A stretch of 64,000 nucleotides of DNA from Acidimicrobiaceae bacterium (GTDB lineage: Bacteria; Actinomycetota; Acidimicrobiia; Acidimicrobiales; Aldehydirespiratoraceae): assembly GCA_009843735.1 (NCBI GenBank), contig VYCW01000087.1:7589-71588 (forward strand), given 5' to 3'. Both the position numbers and the translations under genes were made by a program. Every line of letters starts with the position of its first letter. Positions within the stretch are counted from its first letter, which is position 1. Under the pieces are notes generated by a model that saw nothing but the letters and a program-made list of their open reading frames with translations, ran no database searches and was not told the DNA's origin. This document shows positions 29,320 through 46,757 of this stretch, one piece after another.

Positions 29320-29808
29320 CTAGAGGGTCCAGGTGGAGAGGACCAGGGCCCTGTCGCGCCAGGCCTGGATGTTGGCGTCGAGGACGTCGAGCGGGTTGAA
29401 GGGGGTCACGCCCTCCATCACGTCGTCCTCGCGCATACCGTAGAGCGCGCCCATGGCGAAGCGGCAGCAGTACACCGTCGCGCCCTCGTTGATGAGGGTC
29501 TGGAGCTGGCGGTTGTACCCGAGGTTGCCGGGGAAGCCCTCCTGGCCCACCGCCGGGTAGCCCCGGGCAGCGTTGGCCATGAGCACGGCCGGGCCGTACA
29601 GCACGAACGTGAGCTTGAAGCCCTTGCGCTGCAGGCGGGTGGCGGTGAGCATGTTCACCAGGCCGACCGAGCCCTCGAAGGGCACGGTGTGCATGAACAC
29701 GTACGCCTGATCGCCCTCCTCAGCCTTGTAATCGGGGAAGACCTTCTCCTCGATGTTGTGCATGACGTCGCCCTCTTGGGGCGGCGGGATGGTCACTGTC
29801 TTTGGCAT
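29320..29808 (-). CDS. Hypothetical protein, proposed MSMEG_0572/Sll0783-family (Nit1C 'Hp1') member
   Basis: 162 aa. Assigned from size and conserved gene order (flavoprotein, small protein, ~160-aa protein) as in the MSMEG_0569-0570-0572 arrangement. Family identity not verified. Confidence 0.5.
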   Translation of the reverse strand: MPKTVTIPPPQEGDVMHNIEEKVFPDYKAEEGDQAYVFMHTVPFEGSVGLVNMLTATRLQRKGFKLTFVLYGPAVLMANAARGYPAVGQEGFPGNLGYNRQLQTLINEGATVYCCRFAMGALYGMREDDVMEGVTPFNPLDVLDANIQAWRDRALVLSTWTL

Positions 29809-30138: not shown

Positions 30139-31461
30139 CTACAGCCCGGCCAGGAGGTTCTGCGCGGCCACCGAGATCGGCTCGTTGAGGGCGCCGATGG
30201 CGGGCGAGTAGACGTTCTCCATCGTGGCCAGCTCCTCAACGGTGAGCCCGACCCGCACCGCCATGGCCAGGAAGTCGGCCCGCTCCTTGATGCCCTCGCC
30301 GCCCACCATCTGCGCGCCGATCAACCGGAGCGACCCCGGCTCGGCCAGCAGCTTCACGGTGATGGGCCTCACGCCCGGGTAGTAGCGGGCCCGGGTGATG
30401 CCCTGGGCCTTGCCCACCACGTGCTGGATGCCCAACGCGGTGGCCAGCGTCTCGCCGAAGGACACCCCGCCGATCATCCACTCTCCGGCCAGCAGGCCCC
30501 ACGGCACGAACACCGGCCGGTAGTGGCGGGTGCCGCCCGCCGCGTTGGTGCCGGCCGTCTTGCCCTGGGCGTAGGCGTGGGAACCGGTCAGCCCCTGGAT
30601 CGGGATGTCGGTGACGCCGTGCGGGATCTCGGTGCAGTCGCCGGCCGCGTAGATGTTCGGATCGGAGGTCTGCATCCTGGAGTCGACGACCAGCCCGCCG
30701 GTCGTACCCAGCTGCAGACCGGCGGCCTCGGCCAGCGGGTTGTTGGGCACCTTGTGAGTGCCGATGATGACGATGTCGGTGTCGATGTCGCCCTGCTCGG
30801 TCTCGACCCGACTCACAGCGCCATCGCCCCTGAAGGCGGTGACCCAGTTGCCCCACTGCATGTCGACATCGGCGTCCTCCCAGGCCTGGCGGACGGGCTC
30901 GACGATGTCGGGATCGAGCACATCGGCCATCGGCCAGGGGGCCCGGTCGACGACGGTCACCTTGATCCCCCGGTGCAGCAGGGCCGCGACCATCTCCATG
31001 GCCACCAGACCGGCCTCGACGATCACCGCCGACTTGCAGGAGTCGAGGCGCTTGTCCCAGTCCATGGCCGCCCGGATGTACTTGACCTCGTAGATCCCGT
31101 CGAGGTCGGCCCCATCGACATCCACCTTGGCGTAGTTCCAGCCGGCGCCGATGATGAGCCGGTCATAGGACACCACGCCCTCACCCGCGACGGTGAGGGT
31201 GCGCGCCTTCGCGTCGATGGCCTCGACGGTGGTCTCGTAGTGGACGTCGATCCCGGTGTTTACGTACTGCTCCTTGGTGGCCAGGAAGAGCCGCTCGAAT
31301 GAGTCGATCTCGCGCCCGTGGACGTAGGGGATCCCGCAGGGGCTGTAGGCCACATCAGTGTCGGCGGTGTAGACCACCACCTCCGCGCTGGGATCGACCG
31401 CCTTGGCCGCGCCGGCGGCACCCAGTCCTGCGGCGCCTCCGCCGATCACTGCGATCCGCAT
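30139..31461 (-). CDS. Pyridine nucleotide-disulfide oxidoreductase (NADH oxidase/CoA-disulfide reductase-like); proposed MSMEG_0569-family flavoprotein
   Basis: 440 aa. MRIAVIGGGAAG, single redox Cys in YSPCGIPY, and a second Rossmann fold. Confidence 0.8.
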   Translation of the reverse strand: MRIAVIGGGAAGLGAAGAAKAVDPSAEVVVYTADTDVAYSPCGIPYVHGREIDSFERLFLATKEQYVNTGIDVHYETTVEAIDAKARTLTVAGEGVVSYDRLIIGAGWNYAKVDVDGADLDGIYEVKYIRAAMDWDKRLDSCKSAVIVEAGLVAMEMVAALLHRGIKVTVVDRAPWPMADVLDPDIVEPVRQAWEDADVDMQWGNWVTAFRGDGAVSRVETEQGDIDTDIVIIGTHKVPNNPLAEAAGLQLGTTGGLVVDSRMQTSDPNIYAAGDCTEIPHGVTDIPIQGLTGSHAYAQGKTAGTNAAGGTRHYRPVFVPWGLLAGEWMIGGVSFGETLATALGIQHVVGKAQGITRARYYPGVRPITVKLLAEPGSLRLIGAQMVGGEGIKERADFLAMAVRVGLTVEELATMENVYSPAIGALNEPISVAAQNLLAGL

Positions 31462-31592: not shown

Positions 31593-32048
31593 TCAAACGG
31601 CCACCACCGACAGCTCGGGGGTGTTGCGGATGGTGTTGCTCACGTAGCACACCCGGGCCGCGGCCTCCACCAGCGCGGCCTTGACGGACTCCTCGCAGCC
31701 GGCGTCGACCCGTATCTCCAGCGCCGAGAACCGGGGCCCGTCGTAGGTGCCGGTCACCTCCACATCGACATGGGACAGCTCGATGCCGCGCTTGCCGGCC
31801 GCGTGGGCCACCGCCAGCGTGAAGCAGGACGACAGCGCGGCCAGGAGCAGCTCGGTCGGCTGGGGCCCCTCGTTGGTGCCGCCCACGCTCTCGGGCTCGT
31901 CCACCGGGATCGTGAAGTCGCCGGCGGTGACATCGCAGCGGTATGCACCCAGCCACCGGGCCGAGACTGTGCGGGTAAGCGAACTCACGAAGAAGTCGTC
32001 CTTCAGGCGGTGGCTCAGCCCGTCAACTATACGACGCCCCCCGATCAC
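31593..32048 (-). CDS. OsmC/Ohr family peroxiredoxin-like protein
   Basis: GGTNEGPQPTELLLAALSSC and VCYVSNT motifs. Alternative GTG start at 31988. Confidence 0.8.
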   Translation of the reverse strand: MIGGRRIVDGLSHRLKDDFFVSSLTRTVSARWLGAYRCDVTAGDFTIPVDEPESVGGTNEGPQPTELLLAALSSCFTLAVAHAAGKRGIELSHVDVEVTGTYDGPRFSALEIRVDAGCEESVKAALVEAAARVCYVSNTIRNTPELSVVAV

Positions 32049-32081: not shown

Positions 32082-32720
32082 ATGCGCCGCGAGACCGGCA
32101 ACGGCAACGGAGGAGACGGCTCGGAGACACCGCCGAGCCCGACGCACGGCGAGGACCTGAGCGCGGTCGTGAACTCGATCGGACCCAAGGTCCGCCACCT
32201 TCGCAAGCAGTGGAACCTGTCGCTGCAGCAGCTCGCCGACCGGTCCAACGTCTCGACCGCAGCCATCCACAAGGTCGAGCAGGGCGCGATGGTGCCGACC
32301 ATCACGACGCTGCTGAAGCTGGCTGCGGCCCTGGAACAGCCGGTGTCGTACTTCGTGGAGGAGGACCAGGAGCCGCCGCTGTACGCGGTCTTCACACCCG
32401 CCGCCGAGCGCCGGTCGATCTACACGCCCCATGAGGGTCTCTCCCTGGGCGGCATCTCGGGCCCCTACGGGCAGTACTTCGTGGCGACCGCCATCGCCGA
32501 GGTCGAGCCGGGGGCCGACAGCGGCGAGAACCCTCTGCGCCACGCCGGCGAGGAGCTCATCCACATGCTGTCGGGGCGGCTCGACGTCGATGTCGGCGAC
32601 CAGTCGTTCCAGCTGCGCCGGGGCGACTCGATCCACTTCCGGACCGACCAGGAGCACCGCTGGCACAACCCGTACCGGCACACCGCACGGGCGGTGTGGA
32701 CCGCCCTGAGACCCACCTGA
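32082..32720 (+). CDS. XRE-family HTH transcriptional regulator with C-terminal cupin domain (PuuR-like architecture)
   Basis: IGPKVRHLRKQWNLSLQQLADRSNVSTAAIHKVEQG HTH, followed by a cupin (GEELIHMLSGRL...GDSIHF). Confidence 0.85.
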   Translation: MRRETGNGNGGDGSETPPSPTHGEDLSAVVNSIGPKVRHLRKQWNLSLQQLADRSNVSTAAIHKVEQGAMVPTITTLLKLAAALEQPVSYFVEEDQEPPLYAVFTPAAERRSIYTPHEGLSLGGISGPYGQYFVATAIAEVEPGADSGENPLRHAGEELIHMLSGRLDVDVGDQSFQLRRGDSIHFRTDQEHRWHNPYRHTARAVWTALRPT

Positions 32721-32744: not shown

Positions 32745-34160
32745 TCAGTCCTGTGACAGCCGCTGGTCGAGGTCGAGGAGGGCCTGCATGAAGCACTCGG
32801 CGGGGGCGCGGGCCACTCCGGCGCCCACCTGGCCGGACCCGTCGGAGACGTGGAGGATCCCGGTGTTGACCGCCGGGGTGATGGAGGTCTCGACCACCCG
32901 GCGGACATCGACCCCGAGGGGGGTTCCGGCGTTGTCGAGCACCGGTAGACGGAACCGGCTGCTGGTGCTGGCGCAGATGCGGCTCATCGCCGCCGTGACG
33001 GCTGCCGCATCGGCCATACGGCCCCCGAGGAAGCCGGCCACCGCCGGAGAGTTGGCCGCGGCCGGGCCACCCAGCCCCACCAGTTCCAGCACGGCGCTGT
33101 CACCGATGTCGGGGGCGCTGGTGTCGGGACCCTGATCCGGGTAGTACAGGGCGTCCTGCACAGGGGGCGCCTCCGCGATGAACCAGTTCTCGGGCCGGCC
33201 GGCCAGGCGGATGCCGTAGGTGGTGCCGTTGCGGCACATGGTGGTGACGATGCTCGAGTCCGGCACCTGGCCGGCCCACTCGACCAGAGCGCGGGCACCG
33301 GCCATGACCACGTTGAGGAACATCAGGTGGTTGGTGCTCAGGAAGTCGGCCACCTCGCCGATCCGGGCGACATCCGAGCGGACTAGTTGCGGGAGCAGGT
33401 CGCGCAGCAGCAGGTTGGTGGTGGCCTGGACCCGCATGTGCACGTCGTCGCCCATGGTGATGCCCTGAGCGGCCAGTGAGAACACATCGACCGGTCCGGT
33501 CCCGTCGAGAGCCCGGGCCAGGGCCGGACCGAGCGCGTCCCGCAGGAACCGGAGGCGCTCGATGGCCGCGTCGGAGTCGACCCCGAACCAGGCGACCTCC
33601 CCGGAGCCCTGGTTCAGGCTGGAATAGGCGGTGGTGCCGCCAGCATCGACCGAAACCACGTAGACCGGCGCGCTGGGACCGATCGCGGTGGCCATCGGCA
33701 CCACCGTGCAGTGCTCATTAGCCGGCTCCAGGCCGATCTCACCGGCCTGCACCATGCGGTCGGCGGCATCGCTGTTGGAGGCCCAGCCCTCGGCCACGAC
33801 CGCGGCCCTGACCGAGCGCCGGAGCGGGTCGCACATGTCGGCCCAGGCGATCCGCGGCCCGCAGTGCAGGATCGTCGCTTCGTCCAGGCCGCCGATCACC
33901 GAGCCCGCCGTGTCCACGCCCTGCAGCATGGGCACACCGCGGTCCAGGCGGCTGATCACCTCCGCGTTGGCCGCGTCCACCCGGTCCGAGGCCGGGCCCA
34001 GCAGCCGGGCCAGCGCCGCCACCGCGTCGAGGTCGCCGCCGGCGGGGATGCGCCAGTCCACGCCGACCGCGGGGGCGCCCTGGTCGCGTACCGCGGTCTC
34101 GAACCGCTCCAGGCCGATGTTGACGACTTCCACCCTGTCGGGCAACTCGATGGCGCCCAT
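32745..34160 (-). CDS. DUF1116 family protein (YlbE/AllG-like)
   Basis: 471 aa. Resembles the E. coli YlbE family that partners FdrA and YlbF. Confidence 0.65.
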   Translation of the reverse strand: MGAIELPDRVEVVNIGLERFETAVRDQGAPAVGVDWRIPAGGDLDAVAALARLLGPASDRVDAANAEVISRLDRGVPMLQGVDTAGSVIGGLDEATILHCGPRIAWADMCDPLRRSVRAAVVAEGWASNSDAADRMVQAGEIGLEPANEHCTVVPMATAIGPSAPVYVVSVDAGGTTAYSSLNQGSGEVAWFGVDSDAAIERLRFLRDALGPALARALDGTGPVDVFSLAAQGITMGDDVHMRVQATTNLLLRDLLPQLVRSDVARIGEVADFLSTNHLMFLNVVMAGARALVEWAGQVPDSSIVTTMCRNGTTYGIRLAGRPENWFIAEAPPVQDALYYPDQGPDTSAPDIGDSAVLELVGLGGPAAANSPAVAGFLGGRMADAAAVTAAMSRICASTSSRFRLPVLDNAGTPLGVDVRRVVETSITPAVNTGILHVSDGSGQVGAGVARAPAECFMQALLDLDQRLSQD

Positions 34161-34335
34161 CGCAGCCGGTGTGCGTATCCGTTCCGCCCGAGGCCCCTAG
34201 AGGCCCCGCGGATTGACGAGCAAACCCGGTCCACACGGGCGGGGCCGTGGCCCGAGCGGCCCGTGAGCGCAGCGAACAAGAGCGGGAATGACCCCGCCGC
34301 ATCGCGATCGACTGCCGAGCAATCCGCGCACGCTC

Positions 34336-34881
34336 TTACGACATCGTGACGAGCAGGGCGCTCGGCGTGTCGCGGGCGGCGGGCAGTCGCAGGTGGGCGT
34401 CCTCCGGGATGTCGGCTTCGACCAGCCTCCGGGCCTCAGCCAGCCGGAAGATCATCGGCTGGTGGGGCAAGCCGTAGTAGGGCACGGGCGGCCCGTTGTG
34501 CTCCCATCCGATGCGCTCGAAGAAGGTGACGTTCTGGAGTTGCACGAAGGCGTCCATCACAGTGCCTCCGGCTTCAGCGGCAGTCGACACCGCGAAACGG
34601 ACGAGCCTGATCCCGACGATTCCCGCCCGGTAGCCGGGCAGCACGGCCAGGCGGTCGCCCTTCCAGCGGCCGGCGTCGTCGGTGCGGTACAGGCGGACCG
34701 TGCCGATCACCTCCGGTCCCCGGCCGGCGACCACGTGGATCGTGTCGGGGTCGGCGTCCCAGTCGTCGACGTCGGTGAGGGGAATGACCCGCTGCTCCTC
34801 CACGAACACCCGGTGCCGGATGCGCATGTGCCAACTCCGGGCCTCCGGGGAGACAGCCCGCCAGCATTCGATGCGCTCCAC
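34336..34881 (-). CDS. GNAT N-acetyltransferase, proposed MSMEG_0567/Sll0786 family
   Basis: 181 aa. RHRVFVEEQ... GNAT core. 13 nt downstream of the radical SAM gene, as in Nit1C clusters. Confidence 0.7.
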   Translation of the reverse strand: MERIECWRAVSPEARSWHMRIRHRVFVEEQRVIPLTDVDDWDADPDTIHVVAGRGPEVIGTVRLYRTDDAGRWKGDRLAVLPGYRAGIVGIRLVRFAVSTAAEAGGTVMDAFVQLQNVTFFERIGWEHNGPPVPYYGLPHQPMIFRLAEARRLVEADIPEDAHLRLPAARDTPSALLVTMS

Positions 34882-34894
34882 TGCCGCCTCGCTG

Positions 34895-36013
34895 TCAGCC
34901 CAGGGCCTTCACGGGGATCAGCTTGCGCCCATTGGACCCCTGCAGTTCCCGCTCCATCGCTCCCACCGGCGAGCAGGCCTGGCAGCGGGCGCATCCGGCC
35001 GCGACCTTGTCCGCGGTCAGTCCCCGCTCCACCAGGTACGGCGCAACCTTCCGGGCGACCTGATCGACGTAGCCGGCGGCCGGCGGCGTCCAGTCGCCCA
35101 TCAGCGAGCCCGGGACCGGCCGCAGGGGCACGACGAAGGGGTACACGCCTATGTCGGCGGCCCGCCGGCAGCCCTCGACGATGAGGTCCGGGTCCTCTCC
35201 CATGCCCAGGATCACATAGGTGGAGACCTGGCCCTCGCCGAAGCGCTCCACGGCGTACTCCCAGGTCTCGAAGTAGCGGTCGATGCCGGTGCGGTACTTG
35301 GGGGGAGCGACCCACCGCAGCACCTCCGGATCGAAGGTCTCCACATGGATGCCCACCGAGTCGATGCCCCGTGCGGCCACTTGGTCGATCACACTGAGGT
35401 CGTCGGGCGGCTCGAACTGGACTTCGACAGGAAGGCCCGAGGCCTCCTTCATCGCCTGGCCGCACTTGGCCACGTAGAGGGCGCCCTTGTCGCGGCCGTA
35501 GGTGGAGCCTGTGGTCAAGGTGATGTCCACGGCGCCGTCGAGTTCCTTGGCCGCCACCGCCACCTCGGCCAGCTGCGCGGGGCGCTTCACCAGCACGGTG
35601 CTGCCGGAGTCCAGCGACACCCCGATCCCGCAGAAGCGGCACTGATCCTCGTTGCCCCAGTAGGCGCAGGTCTGCAGAACGGTGCTGGCCAGCGAGTCGA
35701 GGTGCATGAGGGCCAGGTGCCAGTAGGGGACGCCGTCGTCGGTGGTGAGACCGTAGAACCGGGGCCGGTCGGCGGGAGCCGCGCCGGCCAGCCGGACGCC
35801 GTCAGCGTAGATCCCGAACCCGACGTCCTCAGGCTCCAGCGAGTAGGGGGAGTCGGCCACGAATCCAGCGTCCACCGGCACCGTCACCGCAGTGCCCTCG
35901 ATCCAGACCATGCCCGCGTCCGACGGCCCGGCACCGCCCGGCCGTCGCTCGAAGGGGGCGTTTATCCGCAGACCCTTGAACTGGAGGTCAATGATGAGTT
36001 CGGCCAGGGACAC
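34895..36013 (-). CDS. Radical SAM protein, proposed MSMEG_0568 family
   Basis: 372 aa. Cys triad C116-X8-C125-X2-C128 (CAYWGNEDQCRFC), TIM-barrel-like core, and a C-terminal CARCQAC. Confidence 0.75.
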   Translation of the reverse strand: MSLAELIIDLQFKGLRINAPFERRPGGAGPSDAGMVWIEGTAVTVPVDAGFVADSPYSLEPEDVGFGIYADGVRLAGAAPADRPRFYGLTTDDGVPYWHLALMHLDSLASTVLQTCAYWGNEDQCRFCGIGVSLDSGSTVLVKRPAQLAEVAVAAKELDGAVDITLTTGSTYGRDKGALYVAKCGQAMKEASGLPVEVQFEPPDDLSVIDQVAARGIDSVGIHVETFDPEVLRWVAPPKYRTGIDRYFETWEYAVERFGEGQVSTYVILGMGEDPDLIVEGCRRAADIGVYPFVVPLRPVPGSLMGDWTPPAAGYVDQVARKVAPYLVERGLTADKVAAGCARCQACSPVGAMERELQGSNGRKLIPVKALG

Positions 36014-36115
36014 TAGACAATTCCTACCACCGGATTGTCGGCTTCGTCGTGTCCGGCGCGGTTCGCCCGACCGTTGTCGCGATCTAGAGCCGGGAGAGCC
36101 CGGATGCTGTCGCGG

Positions 36116-36643
36116 TTAGGGGATCTCGTTCCCCGTGGCGAGGATCAGAGCCGGCACCCAGAACGTGTAGATCGCGGTTCCGGCCAGGACCAGGCCCAGG
36201 AGCTTGGCTTCGAGCTTGCCGTAGGTGGTGAGGGCCACCGACCCGAACGCGACCAGCCACACGATAAGGATCGACTGGAACATCCAGCTGCCGTCGAAGA
36301 AGTCCCACCAGAACATCGGGAGGATGGCCGTCGGCACGGCGAGGTTCCCCACCACGCGCAGGTCCCATCCATTGGCCTCTGTCTTGCCGAGAACCACGAA
36401 GAACAGGCCGTAGAACGTGACCAGTCCGGCGAGGACGACCGACGCGTCGTCCAGCGGCCGGGCCCACATGATGTAGACGGCCTGGACCAGGTTCAGCAGA
36501 CCCACGATCAGGCTGGCGTGCCCGATGCTGACAAGCGGGTTCGTTCCCCCCTCCTTCTGATCGGCGCCCACGCCGAGGAAGTAGAGGGCGTTCAGCCACA
36601 CGATTAGGCCGGTGGCAATGAACACGATGGTTATGGGAGGCAT
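36116..36643 (-). CDS. AmiS/UreI family amide/urea channel
   Basis: 175 aa with six predicted TM helices. Size and W/F-rich pattern are typical of AmiS/UreI. Confidence 0.65.
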   Translation of the reverse strand: MPPITIVFIATGLIVWLNALYFLGVGADQKEGGTNPLVSIGHASLIVGLLNLVQAVYIMWARPLDDASVVLAGLVTFYGLFFVVLGKTEANGWDLRVVGNLAVPTAILPMFWWDFFDGSWMFQSILIVWLVAFGSVALTTYGKLEAKLLGLVLAGTAIYTFWVPALILATGNEIP

Positions 36644-36665
36644 GACAAGCCCCTTCCTGCCCCAC

Positions 36666-36726
36666 CCGACATTTCGGATGAGACATAGTTATTTCCCAAC
36701 CTAAACCCTGGGCGATCAGGCGTCAA
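36666..36726 (-). promoter_or_regulatory. Promoter TTGACG-N17-TAGGTT plus conserved +5..+25 box (ATGTCTCATCCGAAATGTCGG)
   Basis: -35 at 36721..36726 and -10 at 36698..36703, with the box at 36666..36686. Paralogous to 31504..31565. Confidence 0.6.
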
Positions 36727-36779
36727 ACCTGGCGCGGCAACACTCCGGATCCGGGGCCGGCTAACGCCCCGGCGCCATC

Positions 36780-37148
36780 TCAGTGATCGTGATGATGGTC
36801 GTGATCGCCGTGGTCGTGATCGCCGTGGTCGTGGCCCGGTGGGCGGGCCGCGTAGGCCGCGGCCAGCGCGTCCACCTCGGGCTCCGAGACGATCGCCCGC
36901 TCCTCCACGATCCACTCGAGGGCCTCCTGCCAGCGCTCGTAGTAGCGGTACTCCCCCACCGGATCCGACTCCCAGCGCTGCACGGCCGCGATCAGATGGT
37001 CGCGGAAGTCATCCCAGGTGAAGTGGCCACCCTCCACCAGAGCCATGGCCATGGCGAAGCTGCGCCCCTCCCAGGGCGCGTCGAATACCAGCTCACCGTT
37101 GAGCCGGGGCGGAGCGGCCGGGCCTTCGATGTCGAGGGTGAGAGCCAC
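36780..37148 (-). CDS. Nitrile hydratase accessory (activator/metallochaperone) protein with His-rich tail
   Basis: 122 aa. Beta-subunit-like N-terminal region (FDAPWEGRSFAMA) and a C-terminal HDHGDHDHGDHDHHHDH. Confidence 0.8.
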   Translation of the reverse strand: MALTLDIEGPAAPPRLNGELVFDAPWEGRSFAMAMALVEGGHFTWDDFRDHLIAAVQRWESDPVGEYRYYERWQEALEWIVEERAIVSEPEVDALAAAYAARPPGHDHGDHDHGDHDHHHDH

Positions 37149-37158
37149 CGGCGCCCGT

Positions 37159-37755
37159 TCAGCCTGCGCTGACCTTGGCCACCCCCACCATGGCGTCGCG
37201 GGTCACCAGCGCAGCCAGCTCGTCCTCGCCGAGGTCGTCGGTGCCTTCGGGGCGCTGGGGAAGGACCAGGTAGCGGTTCTCGGCGCTGGAGTCCCACACC
37301 CGGACCTCCACATCGTCGTCGAGGTCCAGGCCCATCTCGCTCAGCAGCGTGCGGGGCTCGCGCACCATGCGACTGCGGTAGGCGGGGTCCTTGTACCACT
37401 CCGGCGGCAGGCCCAGTACCGGCCACGGGTAGCACGAGCACAGCGTGCACACCACCACGTTGTGCACGTCGTCGGAGTTCTCGACCACCACGATGTGCTC
37501 GCCCTGGGGTCCGGCGAAGCCCAGCTCCTTGATGGCGCCGGTGCCGTCGGCCAGCAGGTGCTGGCGGTAGTCGGGGTCGGTCCACGCCTTGGCCACCACC
37601 TTGGCGCCGTTCATGGGGCCGACGTCGTTGACGAAACGGTTGATGAAGCCGTCGAGCACCTCGGACTTGACCAGGCCGCGCTCGGTCAGCAGGGACTCCA
37701 GCGCCTCGGTCCGCACCGCGGGCGGGAGCCGGTCGGTGGTGTTGGTGTCAGCCAT
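37159..37755 (-). CDS. nthA: Nitrile hydratase subunit alpha (cobalt type)
   Basis: 198 aa. Metal site [10 protein letters not shown] (Thr and Tyr, as in Co-type enzymes) encoded at 37432..37449. Confidence 0.92.
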
Positions 37756-38415
37756 CTAGGTCGCCTCCAGGTAGCTCTCGAACAGGTCGATGCGCAGCGT
37801 GGCCGCCTCCGCGTCCGGGCCCCACAGCTCGGCGGAGTCGAACTCCACGGTGTACACGTGCTGGGGGTTCTCGCCCTCGAAGTGGGCGTTGGTGTCGGGC
37901 AGCAGCGCGGCGGGGCGCAGCGCGTGGACGGTGCCGGTGCGGCCCCGGATGTAGCCGGGCATCCGGGTGTGGCCGCCGGTGCGAATGTCCTTGGCCCGCA
38001 CCCGGTCAGCCGGTGAGAAGGCGGGCTCGTCGTCGATCTCGCGCAGCGAGCCGGCGCCGCCTCGCTCGTAGACGGGCTTGTTCTCCTCGACGTCGGCGGG
38101 CTCGTCGACCGTCTCCCCCGTCAGGTTCCGGGCCCTGGCCTCCACCGCTCCGGGCGCGAGCACGCCGCTGTCGACCAGCAGCGTCTCGGCGCAGGCCAGC
38201 CAGCGCCCGTAGTAGCCGTCGACCAGGTAGTCGTAGGGATGCAGGCGTTCCAGGCCGTGGCGGAAGGCGTCGAGGTTGGTGCCCGACAGACCCATCGACA
38301 TGGCCCCCATGGCGAAAGCCCGGCCGTGCCAGGGCTCCCGGAAGACCGGCTCGTCGGGGTCGATGGCCACCGTGCCCCAGCCCTGCATTCCGCCCATGTC
38401 GTGGATGCCGTCCAT
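37756..38415 (-). CDS. nthB: Nitrile hydratase subunit beta
   Basis: 219 aa. MDGIHDMGGMQGWG N-terminus. Its stop abuts the nthA ATG. Confidence 0.9.
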   Translation of the reverse strand: MDGIHDMGGMQGWGTVAIDPDEPVFREPWHGRAFAMGAMSMGLSGTNLDAFRHGLERLHPYDYLVDGYYGRWLACAETLLVDSGVLAPGAVEARARNLTGETVDEPADVEENKPVYERGGAGSLREIDDEPAFSPADRVRAKDIRTGGHTRMPGYIRGRTGTVHALRPAALLPDTNAHFEGENPQHVYTVEFDSAELWGPDAEAATLRIDLFESYLEAT

Positions 38416-38463
38416 CGGAGCCTCCCGTTTGCTGGATTCCTCGGTCGCTGACCCGGCGTGTCA

Positions 38464-38469
38464 ACTATA
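38464..38469 (-). promoter_or_regulatory. Candidate -10 box TATAGT upstream of nthB
   Basis: TCTTATAGT on the minus strand, 49 nt upstream of the ATG. The same 9-mer recurs at 45674..45682. No good -35. Confidence 0.3.
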
Positions 38470-38506
38470 AGACAGCGACTCGTCGCAAGAGAAACGCGAG
38501 CGCCCC

Positions 38507-40027
38507 TTACACCAATCCGGCGAGAGTTCGGGCCTGCGCCAGCAGCGCCTCCTCGGCGTGGGCGTAGCGCTCCTGCTCCTCGACGGCCCGGGCCCGCAGC
38601 TGGGCGGCCCGGGCGGTGAACTCCTCGGCCATCGACTTGACCTCGCCGGGGGACGCTCCGCCAGTCGCCCTGCGGGTGGCCACGATACGGCGCGGGTCCA
38701 GGGCGTCGGCCAGGGCGGCCGGGTCGAGCCCGAGCCGCCGACCGCAGACCTCGGAGGCCGCGTCGTCCAGCATCTGCGGTGTGATGTCGAGGCCGGTGAG
38801 CCCCTGGCGGCTGGCTGCTCGCACCGTCCTTCCCACCACGTTGTAGGCCGTGCGGTAGTCGACGCCGCCGGCCACCATCACGTACTCGGCGAGGTCGGTG
38901 GCCTGGGCGAAGCCGCGCTCCAGTTCAGACCACATGCGCTCGGCGTTGACGCTCAGGGTTCTCACCACTCCGGTGGTGAGGGCGCTCACCCGAATGGTGA
39001 AGTCGAGGGCCCTGGGGATCTCGCCGTAGGCGAAGATCAGGTTGTCGCTGCGAGCCGACGGGCTCTTGACCACGGCCAGGAAGCCGCTCATCCGGCCGAT
39101 CAGCACCCCGCTGGCTCCCCGGATGATCGACAGTGCGTAGGGGTTGCGCTTCTGGGGCATCAGCACCGAGGCCCGGGTGAACGGTCCGGCCAGGTCGACG
39201 TAGTCGAACTCCTGGCTGGACCAGATCTCGAGGTCCTCGGCCAGCTTGGCCTGGTTGGCGATCATGCTGGCCGAAGTGGCCAGCAGGTCGATGAAGACGT
39301 CGGTCTGCCACATGGCGTCGCGGGTGTGGGCGATCACGCCGTCGAACCCGAGCGCGTCGGCGATGGCGCCCCTGTCGTCGAGCAGCCGGCTGCCGTTGAC
39401 GCAGCCCGCGCCGCCGGGGCTGGTGTTCACCTGGTCGAGGGCGGCCGAGAACCGCTCACCGTCACGCAGCGCGGGTGGAACGAACGCGAGGAGGTAGTGC
39501 CCGAATGTCGACGGCTGGGCCTGCTGGAGGTAGGTCTGGTCGCCCATGAAGGTCTCAGCGTGGTCGGCGGCGACCGCAGAGGCCGCCGACGCGAAGTCGG
39601 CCCCCACCTCGATGAGGTGTGCCGTCTGGGACCGCAGCAGCAGCCTCAGCGCTACCCGGGCCGCCTCCCGCCGGGGACGACCAGCATGGAGCCACCCGGC
39701 GGAGTCGCCGATGCGTTGCGCGAAGTGGCGCTCCCGCGAGTTGTAGACCTCCCCGGTGGCGGCGTCGTACGGGAAGTCGGCGGGGTCGGTGCGGTGGGCT
39801 TCCAGCAGCACGCCCAGCAGCGCGGCCGCGGCCGGCTCGGGAATGAGGCTCCGGGCCCGTAGGTCGAGCACGTGACCCAGGTCGGCCAGGTTCAGACCGT
39901 GGTGCAGCAGCGGTGCGTCGGCGATCTCCCAGGCGAACCCGGCGTCGACCAGTTCCCGGGCCGGCGCCTCCGACGACGGCCCGGCGAGCCGCGGCACCGG
40001 GTTTGATCCCTTCGGGTCCACACTCAC
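38507..40027 (-). CDS. Argininosuccinate lyase-like fumarate-lyase superfamily protein
   Basis: 506 aa. ArgH-like layout with the signature region SVLMPQKRNP. Confidence 0.75.
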   Translation of the reverse strand: MSVDPKGSNPVPRLAGPSSEAPARELVDAGFAWEIADAPLLHHGLNLADLGHVLDLRARSLIPEPAAAALLGVLLEAHRTDPADFPYDAATGEVYNSRERHFAQRIGDSAGWLHAGRPRREAARVALRLLLRSQTAHLIEVGADFASAASAVAADHAETFMGDQTYLQQAQPSTFGHYLLAFVPPALRDGERFSAALDQVNTSPGGAGCVNGSRLLDDRGAIADALGFDGVIAHTRDAMWQTDVFIDLLATSASMIANQAKLAEDLEIWSSQEFDYVDLAGPFTRASVLMPQKRNPYALSIIRGASGVLIGRMSGFLAVVKSPSARSDNLIFAYGEIPRALDFTIRVSALTTGVVRTLSVNAERMWSELERGFAQATDLAEYVMVAGGVDYRTAYNVVGRTVRAASRQGLTGLDITPQMLDDAASEVCGRRLGLDPAALADALDPRRIVATRRATGGASPGEVKSMAEEFTARAAQLRARAVEEQERYAHAEEALLAQARTLAGLV

Positions 40028-40030
40028 CGG

Positions 40031-41380
40031 TTAGGCCCACTCATCGGTCTCGGCGGATCGGCGGCCGGAGGCGGCGGCTACGACCGCGTCGACCATCGCC
40101 GAGGCTGCGCCGGTCTCGGGCCGGTCCAGACCCTCCAGGTCGGCCGGCGACGCGACATGCTCCAGGACCTCCGTCAGCGGGCGGCCGCTGAGCCGGGCGG
40201 TCCGGTAGGCCTGCTGGAGCTCGTCATTGGCCCGGTGCTTGCCCAGGCGGGCCGACAGGCGCCTCAGCAGTTCCTGGGACCCGAAGTCGCCCATGGTCTC
40301 CAGGTTGGCCGCCATCGCCTCGGCATCCACCTCGATGCTCGCCGCGAGGCCGCGGGCCAGGCCCAGTTGGGCCAGCAAGTAGTGGCCAATCTCCGGCAGC
40401 AGCACCCACTCGGTCTTCCAGGTGCGGCCGTCGCGCTCGTGGTCGCCGACCATGGTCTCGGTGAGCACACCCGAGGCCGAGCGCACCAGCCGGGCGAGGG
40501 TCACGATCTGCTCGCTGCGCTCCGGGTTGCGCTTGTGGGGCATGGTGATGCTGCCCATGGTGGCCTCGGACGCCGCCTCCGCGACCTCGCCGATCTCGCG
40601 CCGCTGGAGGTTGTACACCTCGTTGGCCATCCGGGCCATGGTCGCCGAGACCAGAGCCGAGTTGTTGGCGAACTCGGCGATCCGGTCCCGGGCCGTGAGC
40701 CAAGAGACGGTCGGCTCCCCCAGTTCGAGGCGTTGGCAGAAGCGGCGGCGCAGTTCGGGTCCGAGCTCTCCGTAGAAGCCCAGGGCCCCGACCGCCCCGG
40801 CCAGCTGGCCCACCACGAGGCGGGGACGGCTCTGGCGCCAGCGCTCCAGATGGCGGGCCGTCTCATCGGCCCATGAGGCTGCCTTGAGCCCGAAGGTCAC
40901 CGGAGCGCCCGGCTGGCCGTGGGTGCGGCCCAGCATGGGCGTGTCGCGGTGGCGCCCGGCCAGATCGAGCAGCGAGGCCTCCACCGCCCGCAGGTCTCGC
41001 CACACGATGGCGCCGACGTCGCGCATCTCCAGCGCGGCGGCGGTGTCGGTGACGTCCTGCACGGTGGCGCCGTAGTAGACGTGCTCGCGGGCCTCGGCGG
41101 GCAGCAGGGCTTGCAGCTCGCGCACCAGCCCGATGGTGGAGTGGGACGTCCGGCGGGTCTCCGCGCCCACCGCGGCCGGGTCCAGCCGGCTCGCGTCGAG
41201 GTCTTCTATCGCCGCGGCGGAAGCGGCAGGGATGATCTCGAGGTCGGCCTGCGCGGCGGCCAGAGCCTTGAGCACCCGCACCCAGCGGGACAGGCGGGCG
41301 CGCTCGGAGAACAGGGCCAGCGACTCCGAGGTGGACCACCCGTGGCCGTAGATGGCCGAGTCGATCAGGTGGGCGTCCAC
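40031..41380 (-). CDS. Adenylosuccinate lyase / 3-carboxy-cis,cis-muconate cycloisomerase-like fumarate-lyase superfamily protein
   Basis: GTG 41380 (VDAHLIDSAIYG...) overlaps the upstream gene by 16 nt. GRTHGQPGAP and GSITMPHKRNP signature. 449 aa. Confidence 0.8.
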   Translation of the reverse strand: MDAHLIDSAIYGHGWSTSESLALFSERARLSRWVRVLKALAAAQADLEIIPAASAAAIEDLDASRLDPAAVGAETRRTSHSTIGLVRELQALLPAEAREHVYYGATVQDVTDTAAALEMRDVGAIVWRDLRAVEASLLDLAGRHRDTPMLGRTHGQPGAPVTFGLKAASWADETARHLERWRQSRPRLVVGQLAGAVGALGFYGELGPELRRRFCQRLELGEPTVSWLTARDRIAEFANNSALVSATMARMANEVYNLQRREIGEVAEAASEATMGSITMPHKRNPERSEQIVTLARLVRSASGVLTETMVGDHERDGRTWKTEWVLLPEIGHYLLAQLGLARGLAASIEVDAEAMAANLETMGDFGSQELLRRLSARLGKHRANDELQQAYRTARLSGRPLTEVLEHVASPADLEGLDRPETGAASAMVDAVVAAASGRRSAETDEWA

Positions 41381-42312
41381 GCGCCGTCCTCGGTCCCGGC
41401 CAGCGTGTGGAGGGCGGTGCGCACCTCTTCGAGGGTCGCACCCCACGGCACCATGACGGTGTCGCCGTGCCGCTCCATTCCCTCGTCCAGCATGCAGCAG
41501 CGGCTCAGGACGAGTCCCGCGCCGGCCGCGTCGCCGGCGGCGTCCATGAGCCGGCGGGGGCACCAATCGATGGTGCGGGGAGCGTCGGTCCCGTAGAACC
41601 AGCGGTGGATCTGCTGGGAGCGCTCGCAGCCGAGCAGGGTCGAACCGGCGAAGGACGGGCGCTCGTCGAGGTGCGACACCGAGACCCCCTCGAGTTCGAT
41701 CCCCCCGCCACGGCAGGGAACGATCAGACCCTCCGACGGTTGCGAACCGGCCTCGGCCACCAGCGAGCGGCTGTCGACGATCCACTCGCTCACCGAGATG
41801 GGCGGCAGGTCCTCGGCCGAGTCCAGGACCCTGGCGACCTGGTCAGCCAGCTTGGAGGGCTCCGGTGGCACGACATCCATCACCGTCACCCGGACGGGGT
41901 CGGCGTTGAGCAGGAAGCTCACATGGCGGTACCGGCCCTCCACCACCACGCACCGGTGATCGGGGCGCTGGGCCGCGGCCCGGGCCAGGTGCGATCCGAC
42001 GCCCAGGTCGAGGCTGTCGTCGCGCACGTAGGCGCATTCGGCGGCCGTTGCCAGCACACGGGCGGCGACCGCCTCGGAGAACAGGTCGTCGCTGCCGTCG
42101 CGGGCCAACTCCACCAGCGCGCAGCGTTCGGGGTCGCCATCCAGGCGGGCGATCACGAATCTGGTCCGGTGGTACGCCTCGCGTCCGGTGAAGCGGGCCA
42201 CCAGATCGTCGGGCGACAGGCTGGGAACCGATGCCACCGACACCTGCCGGTAACGGGCCGGCATCACGTTGGGCGCGGCCGGATCTAGCTCGAACACGGC
42301 CTCATGGTCCAC
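41365..42312 (-). CDS. Cys-rich hypothetical protein (family not recognised)
   Basis: About 300-315 aa (GTG 42312 or ATG 42264) with coding-like composition. C-terminal Cys pattern VPCRGGG...GCERSQ...WCPRR...SRCCMLD. Overlaps both neighbours. Confidence 0.6.
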   Translation of the reverse strand: MDHEAVFELDPAAPNVMPARYRQVSVASVPSLSPDDLVARFTGREAYHRTRFVIARLDGDPERCALVELARDGSDDLFSEAVAARVLATAAECAYVRDDSLDLGVGSHLARAAAQRPDHRCVVVEGRYRHVSFLLNADPVRVTVMDVVPPEPSKLADQVARVLDSAEDLPPISVSEWIVDSRSLVAEAGSQPSEGLIVPCRGGGIELEGVSVSHLDERPSFAGSTLLGCERSQQIHRWFYGTDAPRTIDWCPRRLMDAAGDAAGAGLVLSRCCMLDEGMERHGDTVMVPWGATLEEVRTALHTLAGTEDGAWTPT

Positions 42313-43105
42313 CGAGCGACCCCGCGGTGTGGGTGGGAAGGCTGGTCCTGAGGGTGTCGGAGCGCAGCCCGCGCCGGAGCGCCTCCACGCCGAGCACCTC
42401 AGCCGGAGCGATGTTGGCCAGGTTGACGTTCGCGCCCAAGTGGTTGATGAGCCAGGCCTGCTGCTGGCGCCGCGGCGCCTCGTAGACGACCGGCGCGTCC
42501 TCGCCGAGGCGTCCCAGGGCCTCCACCAGGTCGGTGCGAACCGACCCGTCGGCGCCATAGAGGCCCACCGTCCCGCTCTCGCGGCCCTCGGCCACCAGCC
42601 ACGCCGCGCCGCAGTCCAGGTCGCTGCGGGCCTCGTCGAGCCATTCCGACGGCAGGGCCGGCTCATGGGGATCCTTGCTGCCCACCTCCGAGAACACTTC
42701 GAAGCCGTGGCCGCGGGCCGCACCGATCAGTTCGCGCTTGGAAGAGGCCGGCAGGCCGGTAGCGCCCCGCGAGACCTCCACGCAGCCGAAGCCGAGACGG
42801 CGGGACCAGTCGAAGAACTCGGCGCTGCGGCCCTGCCACCACGCTGCTTCCAGCAGGGTCCCGCCCGGACAGGCCTTGACGCCGTGGGTCTCCAGCAACT
42901 CGATCTTGGCTCCGACCGTGCTGTCGATGTAGGCGGTGCCGAAGCCGAACTTCCAGACATCCACGAACGCGCCGTGGGCCTCGAGCAGTTCGCCCATGCT
43001 CTCCAACGGCGTGCCCTTGTCGATTATGTGGGTGATCCCCCGGCGGCGCGGCTTGGTCGTCCGAGCGGCAGTCTCAAGGAACCGGGGAGGCTCGGAGATG
43101 GGCAT
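42302..43105 (-). CDS. Phosphosulfolactate synthase (ComA) family protein
   Basis: KPRRRGITHIIDKG and DVWKFGFGT motifs of the ComA TIM barrel. ATG 43105 lies behind AGGAGA. Tracked TTG start at 43135. Confidence 0.75.
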   Translation of the reverse strand: MPISEPPRFLETAARTTKPRRRGITHIIDKGTPLESMGELLEAHGAFVDVWKFGFGTAYIDSTVGAKIELLETHGVKACPGGTLLEAAWWQGRSAEFFDWSRRLGFGCVEVSRGATGLPASSKRELIGAARGHGFEVFSEVGSKDPHEPALPSEWLDEARSDLDCGAAWLVAEGRESGTVGLYGADGSVRTDLVEALGRLGEDAPVVYEAPRRQQQAWLINHLGANVNLANIAPAEVLGVEALRRGLRSDTLRTSLPTHTAGSLGGP

Positions 43106-43127
43106 CGGGATGATCTCCTGACCGGCG

Positions 43128-43964
43128 TCACCCAACGGCGGGCCGAGACACCATTGTACGGGTCACGTCAGTACGGGGCAGTTCGGTGGCGGCCAGAGCG
43201 AGGCCGGCGGTGAGCGCCCGGCCCGAGGTCGCGCCCACTGCGGCCAGCGACTGGGCGGCCCGCACCATTGCGTCGCCGTCGCCGGATCCTGCCGCGTCCA
43301 GCAAGGCGTGGGCGGGCTGGATGCTCTGGCCGGCCGCGGCCCACCTCAGGTAGGCGCGGCTGAGCGTGGTCGTGCGGGCCGTGCGGGCCAAGCGCCCCAG
43401 GGCTACGCGGCGTGCCGAGTCCGTGGCGCACGCCAGCAGGATCCCGGCGAGCACGTCGTCGCCGCTCGGCGTGAGCCCGGGGCCACGCCCCGCAAGCCGA
43501 CCGAACACCGCGGCCAGGTCCCCGCGCCGAAGGTCATGTTTCACCGCTTCCCAAACGGGTGCCAGATCGACGTCCACTCCGGCCGCGAGACCATGCCAAG
43601 CCTCCGGGTCTGCCTTGAGGCGCTCGGGCAGGCTCGGTGCCCAGCGACGGCATCCGTCGAGCAGTACGGCGACCGGGCCGGCCACAAGGGTGCCGTCGGA
43701 GACACGCACTCTCTCGTGAACCGCAGGTAGTTCAGCCATCTCGCCGACGACGAGGTGCAGGGGCCCCGGCCAGTGTCGGGGACCCACTACCGCGAAGATC
43801 TCCTCGGAGGGGCCTGAGACATAGAAGCCGTCGTCGAAGGCGCCCTGCACCCGGCCGACGAATCCGGGACAGGCCGCTTCGAGAACCCCGGCACCGCACC
43901 AGAGCACCGGGACGGGCTCCGCTACTGCTGTACCGTGCGGCCGTGGCCCCGCCCGAGTCATCAT
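43128..43964 (-). CDS. DUF2877 family protein (YlbF/AllH-like)
   Basis: GRGPGLTPSGDDVLAG motif. ATG 43964 (MMTRAG...). The upstream part of the tracked ORF is Arg-rich, non-coding-like sequence. Confidence 0.65.
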   Translation of the reverse strand: MMTRAGPRPHGTAVAEPVPVLWCGAGVLEAACPGFVGRVQGAFDDGFYVSGPSEEIFAVVGPRHWPGPLHLVVGEMAELPAVHERVRVSDGTLVAGPVAVLLDGCRRWAPSLPERLKADPEAWHGLAAGVDVDLAPVWEAVKHDLRRGDLAAVFGRLAGRGPGLTPSGDDVLAGILLACATDSARRVALGRLARTARTTTLSRAYLRWAAAGQSIQPAHALLDAAGSGDGDAMVRAAQSLAAVGATSGRALTAGLALAATELPRTDVTRTMVSRPAVG

Positions 43965-43978
43965 CGCTGGACCGGCTG

Positions 43979-44902
43979 GTGGACGCGGTCCGCACCCATG
44001 GAGGCTTGCGGGCCAAGCGGGCGATCGGAGCTGTCCGGCGCGTCCTCGGTGCCGCCGATCCGCTGAGCGGTCCCGGCGACGACGGCGCCGCGGTGGAGAT
44101 GTCCACCGCCGGCTCGGTGATCGTGTGCGGCGAAGCGCTCCTTCCCGGCTTCGTGGCATCGGATCCCCGGGGCGCGGGGATCGCGGCGGTGCTCGCCAAC
44201 GTCAACGACCTCGCGGCCATGGGAGCGGTCCCCAGAGCGATCGTGAACACTGTCGTAGCGACGGCACCAGTGGCGGCTGAGGCTCTGGGAGGCATGGCCG
44301 AGGCCGCGGCCCTCTACGACGTGCCCATTGTGGGCGGTCACCTGACCGAGCACCAGGGCGAACCGGCGCTGTCGGCGTTCGCGGTCGGCGACGCCGACCG
44401 GGTCCTGTCGGCCGACCGAGCCCGTGCAGGCCAGCATCTCGTGTTCGCCTGCTGCCTCGACGGCAGGATGCGGACCGACTTCGACTTCTTCACCACCCTC
44501 GAATCGCAGGGACCCCGCCTGGCTGCTGATGTGCGTCTGCTGGCCCGGGCGGCCAGCGAGGGTCTCGCTTCGGCGGCCAAGGATGTCAGCATGGCCGGAG
44601 CGATCGGTTCGCTGGCGATGCTGCTTGAACCCGGACGCCTCGGTGCCGAGATCGACCTGCACACGCTGCCGGGGCCTGAGGGGGTGGCCCTGGACCGCTG
44701 GCTGGTCTGCTTCCCGACTTACGCCTTCTGGCTGGCCACGGGCAGACCCGAAGCCTGTGTGGACCTGTTCCGGTCGGCGGGACTGGCCGCCAGCGTCGTC
44801 GGGACCGTCACCGACAGCGGCGTTCTGGCGCTCCGGCAGGGCACCGAGAGCCGGGATGTGATCGATCTCAGACGAGAACCCGTCACCGGTCTCTGGGATT
44901 GA
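43979..44902 (+). CDS. AIR synthase-related (PurM/ThiL/HypE-like) protein, proposed sll0787 family
   Basis: GPGDDGAAVE ATP/Mg motif, NVNDLAAMGA, and the C-terminal PurM_C-like half. Start uncertain (GTG 43979 or CTG 43967). Confidence 0.7.
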   Translation: MDAVRTHGGLRAKRAIGAVRRVLGAADPLSGPGDDGAAVEMSTAGSVIVCGEALLPGFVASDPRGAGIAAVLANVNDLAAMGAVPRAIVNTVVATAPVAAEALGGMAEAAALYDVPIVGGHLTEHQGEPALSAFAVGDADRVLSADRARAGQHLVFACCLDGRMRTDFDFFTTLESQGPRLAADVRLLARAASEGLASAAKDVSMAGAIGSLAMLLEPGRLGAEIDLHTLPGPEGVALDRWLVCFPTYAFWLATGRPEACVDLFRSAGLAASVVGTVTDSGVLALRQGTESRDVIDLRREPVTGLWD

Positions 44903-44933
44903 CCACACCGGCTCGCCCGGCTGCGCCCCCATG

Positions 44934-45593: not shown

Positions 45594-45673
45594 GGTGCCG
45601 ACTCCTCGTCGTGGGCGCACCCGTCGTTCAGCACGAGACATTGTGGCTTGGCAGGGCCTTGAACGCGTCATCT

Positions 45674-45679
45674 ACTATA
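45674..45679 (-). promoter_or_regulatory. Candidate -10 box TATAGT
   Basis: TCTTATAGT on the minus strand in the divergent 45594..45764 region. Shared with 38464..38472. Confidence 0.25.
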
Positions 45680-45764
45680 AGAAAGTCGGTTCTGCTATCG
45701 GCAGGTCCGCCAACTGGGGCCGGCTCCGCCGGACCCGATCAGGCCTGACGAGAGGGAGTGCGCC

Positions 45765-46745: not shown

Positions 46746-46757
46746 CGGATCCAGGCC

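Follow-up and report, generated by a model that had tools for sequence, protein, structure and literature searches.

A putative paralogous AllFGH-type enzyme and partner carbamate kinase in a conserved cluster of Nit1C-type genes and coenzyme M-pathway homologues

Why should homologues of all three Escherichia coli AllF-AllG-AllH enzyme subunits, together with a carbamate kinase, lie scattered through a cluster of seemingly unrelated genes in an uncultured actinobacterium associated with sponges? The question is raised by a stretch of 64,000 nucleotides (nt) of contig VYCW01000087.1 (positions 7,589 to 71,588; hereafter the window, to which all coordinates refer unless another locus is named), which comes from a metagenome-assembled genome (MAG) of 3.43 Mb in 140 contigs that is 84.6% complete and is a member of 'Ca. 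Aldehydirespirator', a sponge/marine genus of Acidimicrobiia. A previous reading of the sequence alone had placed members of the DUF1116, DUF2877, carbamate kinase and FdrA families in this window and had taken FdrA to be translationally coupled to a glycosyltransferase of the Nit1C type. Given the high G+C of the window (~70%), we called genes from third-position GC and hidden Markov models, and assigned families with Pfam and NCBIfam/TIGRFAM profiles whose bit scores were compared with the curated cut-offs. All four assignments stand, and the full set of FdrA (CoA_binding/Ligase_CoA), PF06545, PF11392 and carbamate kinase is present, with one copy of each gene in the MAG:

32745–34160, minus strand: AllG (DUF1116) subunit homologue, 471 amino acids (aa); full-length PF06545 domain, E 2e-68
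43128–43964, minus strand: AllH (DUF2877) subunit homologue, 278 aa; PF11392, E 1e-20
45765–46745, plus strand: carbamate kinase (AllK/ArcC-like), 326 aa; TIGR00746, E 2.3e-97
46758–48308, plus strand: FdrA/AllF subunit homologue, 516 aa; NF004760, E 1.5e-120

The four genes are spread over 15.6 kb (32745–48308) on both strands. The carbamate kinase (CK) gene lies upstream of FdrA across a gap of 12 nt, and the FdrA stop codon overlaps the GTG start of the glycosyltransferase gene in the tetranucleotide GTGA (48305–48308), as the coupling claimed earlier implied. On balance, and with moderate confidence, we favor the view that these genes code for a paralogous enzyme of the AllFGH type and its partner CK, dedicated to the surrounding cluster and acting as a carbamoyl-phosphate-linked transferase on a cluster-specific, probably sulfonate- or thiol-derived, intermediate. 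AllFGH itself is a phosphate-dependent carbamoyl transferase resembling FdrA/succinyl-CoA synthetase (SCS), and the module appears to have co-evolved with a cluster of ~22 genes that joins Nit1C-type genes to homologues of the bacterial coenzyme M (CoM) pathway.

In E. coli K-12 the genes fdrA-ylbE-ylbF-ybcF are contiguous, as the sequence-only reading had stated, and lie downstream of allECD. The function that it gave as proposed, an oxamate carbamoyltransferase with a carbamate kinase, was correct and has moved beyond a proposal: purified E. coli AllF-AllG-AllH catalyzes oxamate + carbamoyl-P <-> oxalurate + Pi (PMC11326118), and YbcF/AllK is a catabolic carbamate kinase (PMC9843812). The likeness of the genes in the window to this system consists of the same four families, shared core motifs and a CK encoded next to FdrA. 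In contrast to E. coli, they are split between both strands, lack allECD neighbors, are set in a Nit1C/Xcb-type cluster, belong to a separate clade and carry substitutions near conserved AllG motifs. A further difference is that the C-terminal tail of AllF in E. coli corresponds to the N-terminus of AllG here: aa 6–54 of AllG (34007–34145) match the tail of E. coli FdrA at residues 507–551 with 39% identity, and an NCBIfam match agrees. A segment of ~50 residues thus seems to have moved between the two subunits, although their genes lie 12.6 kb apart in the window.

The individual proteins bear the features of intact enzymes. AllG has PDB 3CLQ as its nearest solved structure (4e-76), and FdrA, which is homologous to the SCS alpha subunit, has E. 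coli FdrA, 3DMY (2e-73), with GRPHPMIDP conserved. The CK retains its core motifs; it exceeds the cut-off of NF009007 (316.8 bits against 266) and stays below that of TIGR00746 (325.8 bits against 358.25). In AllH, for which an alternative start exists at 43907, the PF11392 model covers only the C-terminal ~100 aa, and the motif GRGxGLTPxGDDxLxG is invariant; the AllH sequence had no match in the PDB, and its confident AlphaFold2 (AF2) model (predicted local distance difference test, pLDDT, 87.7) found none there with Foldseek at E <= 0.001.

Trees computed with IQ-TREE for AllG (40 rows), FdrA (31) and CK (25) each split the cluster-embedded from the canonical contiguous copies by a single change, with SH-like approximate likelihood ratio (SH-aLRT) supports of 99, 100 and 96, respectively. 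The E. coli enzyme falls outside the cluster-type clade for all three proteins; identity to it is 40% for AllG (YlbE), 38% for FdrA, 38% for CK (YbcF) and 37% over the 110 C-terminal residues compared for AllH. The canonical copies found in Actinomycetota, where the genes run contiguously as CK..FdrA-AllG(-AllH), are closer to E. coli. In FdrA, AllG and CK, 58 alignment columns each are invariant across both clades and E. coli, including the GRPHPMIDP region of FdrA, which speaks against decay of these enzymes. A handful of differences are fixed between the clades, namely R191W, E239D, N242M (next to the invariant MGD motif), I374V, V378L and V450A in AllG; D172G, S200A and D392E in FdrA; and L61A in CK; these positions are candidates for a changed substrate pocket. 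Taken at the level of sequence, the AllF/G/H and CK genes are a complete, intact and separate co-inherited set that belongs to the cluster.

The distribution of the set points the same way; as the compared genomes are phylogenetically non-independent, the counts given here and below describe a pattern and are not statistical tests. AllG orthologues with 80–92% identity occur in 20 of the 24 genomes of the genus and in none of 16 other families of the order, and all 17 genus loci that were fetched share the same gene order, nitrile hydratase (NHase) included. Across an even draw of 401 Actinomycetota genomes the AllG matches are bimodal, with eight genomes at 58–65% identity and ~44 at 31–45%. 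The eight belong to two other actinobacterial families; in every one of them AllG lies beside XcbC, XcbD, XcbA and ComA and, as far as the contigs permit, it is accompanied by AllH, FdrA, CK, the glycosyltransferase, a radical SAM protein, a GNAT, an AIR-synthase-like protein, OsmC, a regulator, a reductase and a homologue of a 219-aa protein encoded next to CK in the window. From the opposite direction, XcbA (PF24830) was found in 11 of the 401 genomes and adjoins a cluster-type AllG in eight of these 11, while the MSMEG_0568-type radical SAM gene is present in nine of the 11 genomes with a cluster-type AllG, the two exceptions being fragmentary assemblies. The genomes with classical Nit1C clusters, which have the highest radical SAM scores in the draw, are without this AllG clade.

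Beyond the draw, two further Acidimicrobiia MAGs contain the full set, as does Ruegeria sp. THAF57 (AllG 72%, FdrA 57% and CK 66% identical), and the same arrangement is seen, in partial view, in a Silicimonas MAG and a contig of 6.9 Mb. Further versions of the cluster are found in Ilumatobacter, in the cultured Nocardioides aquiterrae and Kribbella, and on a plasmid of Methylocystis iwaonis, where it includes a classical Nit6803-type nitrilase. A reduced version (type B, family f44) holds CK, the 219-aa gene homologue, Amidohydro_2, radical SAM, GNAT, AIR-synthase-like and an AllG of 44% identity, FdrA being encoded at a distance of a few kb; Xcb genes were not seen there, and a Pfam search of hand-picked open reading frames (ORFs) of one such locus (L061) returned nothing useful. 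In most lineages the CK gene lies next to FdrA or overlaps it. The AllG tree places the Rhodobacterales copies inside the NHase-type clade of Acidimicrobiia, which indicates horizontal transfer, and since the clade was found in 0 of 400 sampled Alphaproteobacteria, apart from Ruegeria, its presence there is sporadic. The four genes thus travel with the other cluster genes across two phyla, in a clade of their own, and clearly escape the refutation set with their earlier description as an embedded module, namely a lack of co-occurrence in other genomes.

What the module travels with is best seen from its neighbors in the window:

29320–29808, minus strand: MSMEG_0572/Sll0783 protein; TIGR04044, above cut-off
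30139–31461, minus strand: CoADR-like (CoA-disulfide-reductase-like) flavoprotein
31593–32048, minus strand: OsmC
32082–32720, plus strand: PuuR-like helix-turn-helix (HTH)-cupin regulator
34336–34881, minus strand: MSMEG_0567 GNAT; TIGR04045, 91 bits, cut-off 68.45
34895–36013, minus strand: MSMEG_0568 radical SAM; TIGR04043, 362.8 bits, cut-off 303.7
36116–36643, minus strand: AmiS/UreI-type channel; PF02293, E 5e-6
36780–37148, minus strand: NHase accessory protein; TIGR03889, above cut-off
37159–37755, minus strand: NHase alpha; TIGR01323, above cut-off
37756–38415, minus strand: NHase beta; TIGR03888, above cut-off
38507–40027, minus strand: XcbC-like (ArgH-like) lyase; NF052535, 436 bits, below the cut-off of 575
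40031–41380, minus strand: XcbD-like lyase of the aspartase/fumarase superfamily; NF052536, 504 bits, below the cut-off of 600
41365–42312, minus strand: XcbA-family protein (DUF7714); NF052538, 290.9 bits, above the cut-off of 150; PF24830, E 1.6e-79
42302–43135, minus strand: ComA/XcbB-type phosphosulfolactate synthase, likely start ATG 43105; PF02679, E 4.8e-75; TIGR03849, 244.9 bits, below the cut-off of 280
43979–44902, plus strand: sll0787-type AIR-synthase-like protein (PurM superfamily); TIGR04049, E 1.3e-72, 244.5 bits, below the cut-off of 321.3
44934–45593, minus strand: conserved protein of unknown function, 219 aa, divergent from CK; the ORF reaches 45671 (219–245 aa)
48305–49456, plus strand: MSMEG_0565-family GT4 glycosyltransferase; TIGR04047, 367.7 bits, above the cut-off of 259.85
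49441–50160, minus strand: CbtA cobalt-transporter subunit, at the cluster edge; PF09490, E 2.8e-50

On the minus strand the order of transcription is AllH, ComA, XcbA, XcbD-like, XcbC-like, NHase beta, alpha and accessory, the AmiS/UreI-type channel, radical SAM, GNAT and AllG; AllH is thus the first gene of the AllH-ComA-XcbA-XcbD-XcbC string, and the last gap, from GNAT to AllG, measures 175 nt. A minus-strand ORF of 323 aa at 43961–44932 was rejected as spurious, the real gene being the overlapping plus-strand AIR-synthase-like one; codon-position GC is ambiguous there (position 1 ~ position 3), and the strand was decided by homology alone. The 219-aa protein is present, in synteny, in every type of cluster, and its homologues measure 218–219 aa; it matches no Pfam or NCBIfam family, and its confident AF2 model (pLDDT 89.2) found nothing in the PDB with Foldseek at E <= 0.001. 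The Sll0783 protein, the CoADR-like reductase, OsmC and the PuuR-like regulator are kept with the cluster in relatives.

Two sources can be recognized among these genes. The glycosyltransferase, GNAT, radical SAM and Sll0783 families, all above their cut-offs and accompanied by the sll0787-like protein, are co-located as in Nit1C clusters (MSMEG_0565-0572, sll0783-sll0787, nitA-H). The present cluster differs from Nit1C in having NHase rather than a nitrilase of the Nit6803/sll0784 type, in that no MSMEG_0569-type flavoprotein was found in it, and in its composite nature, with the AllF/G/H, CK and ComA/Xcb genes added. The second source is the CoM pathway: ComA/XcbB, XcbA-family, XcbD-like and XcbC-like genes stand in a row and are 36–51% identical to copies on plasmids of CoM-dependent alkene oxidizers, the XcbA-family protein having 36% identity to that of Xanthobacter pXAUT01 and the XcbD-like one 48–51% to several such copies; plasmid matches of the XcbC-like protein come only from plasmids of CoM users and from Methylocystis. 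In Xanthobacter autotrophicus Py2, XcbA-E carry out bacterial CoM synthesis, in which phosphosulfolactate is formed by XcbB/ComA, phosphate is eliminated by XcbC and cysteine is added by XcbD, with XcbE a pyridoxal-phosphate (PLP) enzyme and XcbA a [2Fe-2S] reductase (PMC9457059). Unlike the Xanthobacter set, the XcbC- and XcbD-like proteins here score below the NCBIfam 'exception' cut-offs, XcbE is missing in the genus, no alkene or epoxide genes are present, and the linkage is to AllFGH/CK and Nit1C-type genes. The earlier inventory of the cluster was accordingly incomplete, for it had left ComA, the XcbA-family, XcbD-like and XcbC-like genes, the NHase accessory gene and the MSMEG_0572/Sll0783 gene unnamed. 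Its emphasis on Nit1C partners survives, with the radical SAM, GNAT, AIR-synthase-like and glycosyltransferase genes constant; NHase, on which it had also relied, is not constant, and the CoM-type ComA/Xcb partners that it missed are present in most lineages. We found no paper linking AllFGH or DUF1116 with Nit1C or Xcb genes; the conserved cluster is apparently undescribed, whereas the AllFGH-type enzyme system itself is known.

The comparison also delimits what may be lost or exchanged. The invariant core comprises FdrA and AllG with the radical SAM, GNAT, AIR-synthase-like, glycosyltransferase and 219-aa genes, which the ComA/Xcb set joins in all but type B. NHase, without an amidase in the same cluster, is present in this genus, in the two other Acidimicrobiia MAGs, in Ruegeria, in Silicimonas and in the cluster L083; it is replaced by a nitrilase in Methylocystis and by an Amidohydro_2 protein (PF04909) in families f35, f43 and f44, which is 66–82% identical among its carriers and absent from this MAG; and Nocardioides, Kribbella and Ilumatobacter have nothing comparable to any of the three within 10 kb. 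Directly past the Ruegeria sp. THAF57 cluster (L048/L055, 14455–18755) stand genes for a hydrolase of the isochorismatase family, a RidA-like protein, a second NHase together with an accessory protein belonging to it, and an ABC transporter, which may be a separate unit for nitrile or amide utilization. Most lineages have an XcbE-like PALP (PLP) gene interposed between XcbD and XcbC (e.g., L080 18466–19467; L003 ~15932–16870). XcbE had no match in the window, the genus loci or the 85%-complete MAG, and in this genus the XcbD-like and XcbC-like genes lie 3 nt apart with no XcbE between them; the pathway of CoM type in this genus may be truncated, or another C-S lyase may complete it. In Ruegeria a cystathionine-beta-lyase-like gene stands beside AllH instead of the XcbE-like gene. 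Two members of the genus, G005 (L030) and G007 (L034/L052), have a variant cluster with XcbA, XcbD, NHase, FdrA, CK and AllG, in which tblastn and a custom profile found no ComA, XcbC or AllH; G007 has an extra canonical FdrA-AllG-AllH set elsewhere (L037). In G360 (L009; G360:C1:1712235-1713069) the profile match to the XcbA-family gene falls into two parts that lie in different frames (positions 1–69 and 68–274 of the profile), suggestive of a frameshift or a fault in the assembly.

How, then, might the AllFGH-type enzyme serve such a cluster? Judging from the one characterized relative and the adjacency of CK and FdrA, it would catalyze carbamoyl-X + Pi <-> carbamoyl-P + X, with X a cluster-specific intermediate, and CK would link carbamoyl-P to ATP, NH3 and CO2; a CK gene beside or overlapping FdrA is what one would expect if carbamoyl-P were the metabolite that the two enzymes share. 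X would most likely be a sulfonate- or thiol-type metabolite, or its amide, supplied by the ComA/Xcb genes. In alkene oxidizers the genes for CoM synthesis sit with the pathway that uses CoM, and with this arrangement as a precedent the Xcb genes may build a thiol or sulfonate carrier for other enzymes of the cluster. We lean towards the nitrogen-releasing direction, operating under nitrogen limitation, because nitrogen starvation induces Nit1C clusters (PMC6039565), the regulator resembles PuuR, the channel is of the amide/urea type and the E. coli precedent is catabolic.

Several observations weigh against this reading. The XcbC-like and XcbD-like proteins score below the NCBIfam curated cut-offs, and so does FdrA, if only just (NF004760, 403.3 bits against 433). 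The four-gene unit is not strictly invariant: AllH was not found with a custom profile in Methylocystis, type B, L051 and L030/L034, nor was it found in Ilumatobacter, and the clusters of Methylocystis, G161 and G360 lack CK, which leaves FdrA and AllG as the only constant members of the four. The glycosyltransferase, GNAT, radical SAM, AIR-synthase-like and ComA/Xcb genes, as well as the SARP-type regulators of Nocardioides, Kribbella and Ilumatobacter, look biosynthetic, so that the direction could instead be anabolic, with CK making carbamoyl-P. Finally, the function proposed for the clade draws on sequence and on analogy with the E. coli enzyme, and the acceptor is putative.

The simplest competing account would have an ordinary oxamate transcarbamoylase with AllK, serving purine or allantoin catabolism, whose genes were dispersed by chance among unrelated neighbors. 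It has in its favor that none of the four families is missing, that their motifs are intact and that the MAG encodes, elsewhere, an M20 (AllC-like) and one Ldh_2 (AllD-like) homologue. We nevertheless reject it as highly improbable, since the clade is distinct from the canonical copies, which are contiguous in the same phylum; the embedding in the cluster is conserved across phyla; no allantoin genes were found in the window; and the AllD-like (Ldh_2) gene is patchy in the genus, the complete genomes G003, G011, G017 and G024 having the cluster and no AllD-like match. Some members of the genus, moreover, carry in addition an FdrA-AllG pair of the canonical type with 40% identity. For the same reasons oxamate itself is unlikely to be the substrate here. 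The sequence-only reading had looked further, to NHase: an amide made by it would be the acceptor or product, R-CONH2 + carbamoyl-P <-> R-CO-NH-CONH2 + Pi on the pattern of oxamate and oxalurate, and the module would stand in for the missing amidase. The E. coli enzyme does carbamoylate an amide nitrogen (PMC11326118), an AmiS/UreI-type channel is at hand, and the clusters with NHase and its accessory protein named above are all without an amidase. Still, carbamoylating an amide would cost ATP and free no nitrogen, the reverse direction would make an amide rather than consume one, and the same AllF/G/CK clade is found in clusters with a nitrilase, with Amidohydro_2 or with neither, so NHase cannot be the reason for the module. 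The missing amidase thus fails as a general rationale, and we also rejected the notion that NHase, by merely filling the nitrilase slot, accounts for the module. An amide acceptor is possible in this particular genus, yet the account as a whole strikes us as decidedly unlikely.

The kinship of FdrA with the SCS alpha subunit raises another option, whereby FdrA and AllG would handle an acyl group other than carbamoyl, acyl-S-X + Pi <-> acyl-P + HS-X, where the Xcb proteins would make X, a CoM-like thiol. The conserved partners are of a kind that would suit a thiol cofactor (ComA/Xcb, the CoADR-like reductase, OsmC and the Sll0783/DsrE-like protein), and some clusters keep FdrA and AllG without CK and AllH. 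However, CK stands beside or overlaps FdrA in most lineages, the sole characterized member of the family transfers carbamoyl (PMC11326118), and the core motifs are common to the canonical clade; we thus regard a non-carbamoyl substrate as unlikely. Returning to the carbamoyl-phosphate-linked transferase that we prefer, one more specific route, to which we assign a slim chance, would convert a heteroatom-bound cyano group into ATP and ammonia on a carrier: R-S-CN -> R-S-CONH2 -> carbamoyl-P + R-SH -> ATP + NH3 + CO2. Here, the CoM-like thiol made by ComA/Xcb would capture cyanide, cyanolysis of its disulfide being one example, and the CoADR-like reductase, OsmC and Sll0783 would maintain that disulfide; NHase would hydrate R-S-CN to the thiocarbamate R-S-CONH2; and the SCS-like AllFGH would phosphorolyze the thioester-like bond to carbamoyl phosphate and free thiol, which would be the half-reaction of succinyl-CoA synthetase with carbamoyl for succinyl and the thiol for CoA. 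CK would then yield ATP, NH3 and CO2. Clusters of the nitrilase type would bypass carbamoyl-P; in keeping with this, CK and AllH are lacking from the single composite cluster of that type seen, in Methylocystis.

Some further features bear on the control and the metal supply of the cluster. The AT-rich 9-mer ACTATAAGA, with at most one mismatch, occurs three times in the 64 kb, always in promoter-type gaps of the cluster: at 32026–32034 (between OsmC and the regulator), 38464–38472 (upstream of NHase beta) and 45674–45682 (between the 219-aa gene and CK). None of 100 shuffles reached three occurrences, and the reverse complement contains TATAGT; the sites hint at shared control, and we claim no operator. 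A tblastx comparison of the gap DNA with the window gave, at 70% GC, compositional noise only. The place of the PuuR-like HTH-cupin protein is taken, in Nocardioides, Kribbella and Ilumatobacter, by a large SARP/BTAD-AAA regulator situated between AllG(-AllH) and ComA (L080 12175–15351; L081 12188–15367); SARP regulators usually control clusters for specialized metabolites. CbtA/CbtB genes flank the Nocardioides and Kribbella clusters as well (L080 1661–2623; L081 1699–2659), with no NHase within 10 kb there, and cobalt (or nickel) may be needed in these organisms by another enzyme of the cluster or by an NHase encoded elsewhere.

Recognition of AllFGH as an enzyme reportedly dates from no earlier than 2024 and is confined to enterobacterial allantoin fermentation. 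The present analysis places CoM-pathway homologues in marine and sponge-associated Acidimicrobiia, in soil actinomycetes, in roseobacters and in a methanotroph, no known CoM user being, to our knowledge, among them. It offers three handles on the long-unexplained Nit1C set, namely the link to carbamoyl phosphate, a CoM-type sulfonate/thiol module and a thiol-redox pair, and the system can be tested in carriers that are in culture (Ruegeria sp. THAF57, Nocardioides aquiterrae, Kribbella spp. and Methylocystis iwaonis). A second, co-inherited clade in a different and widely transferred cluster would mean that the AllFGH family has at least one further substrate and physiological role.

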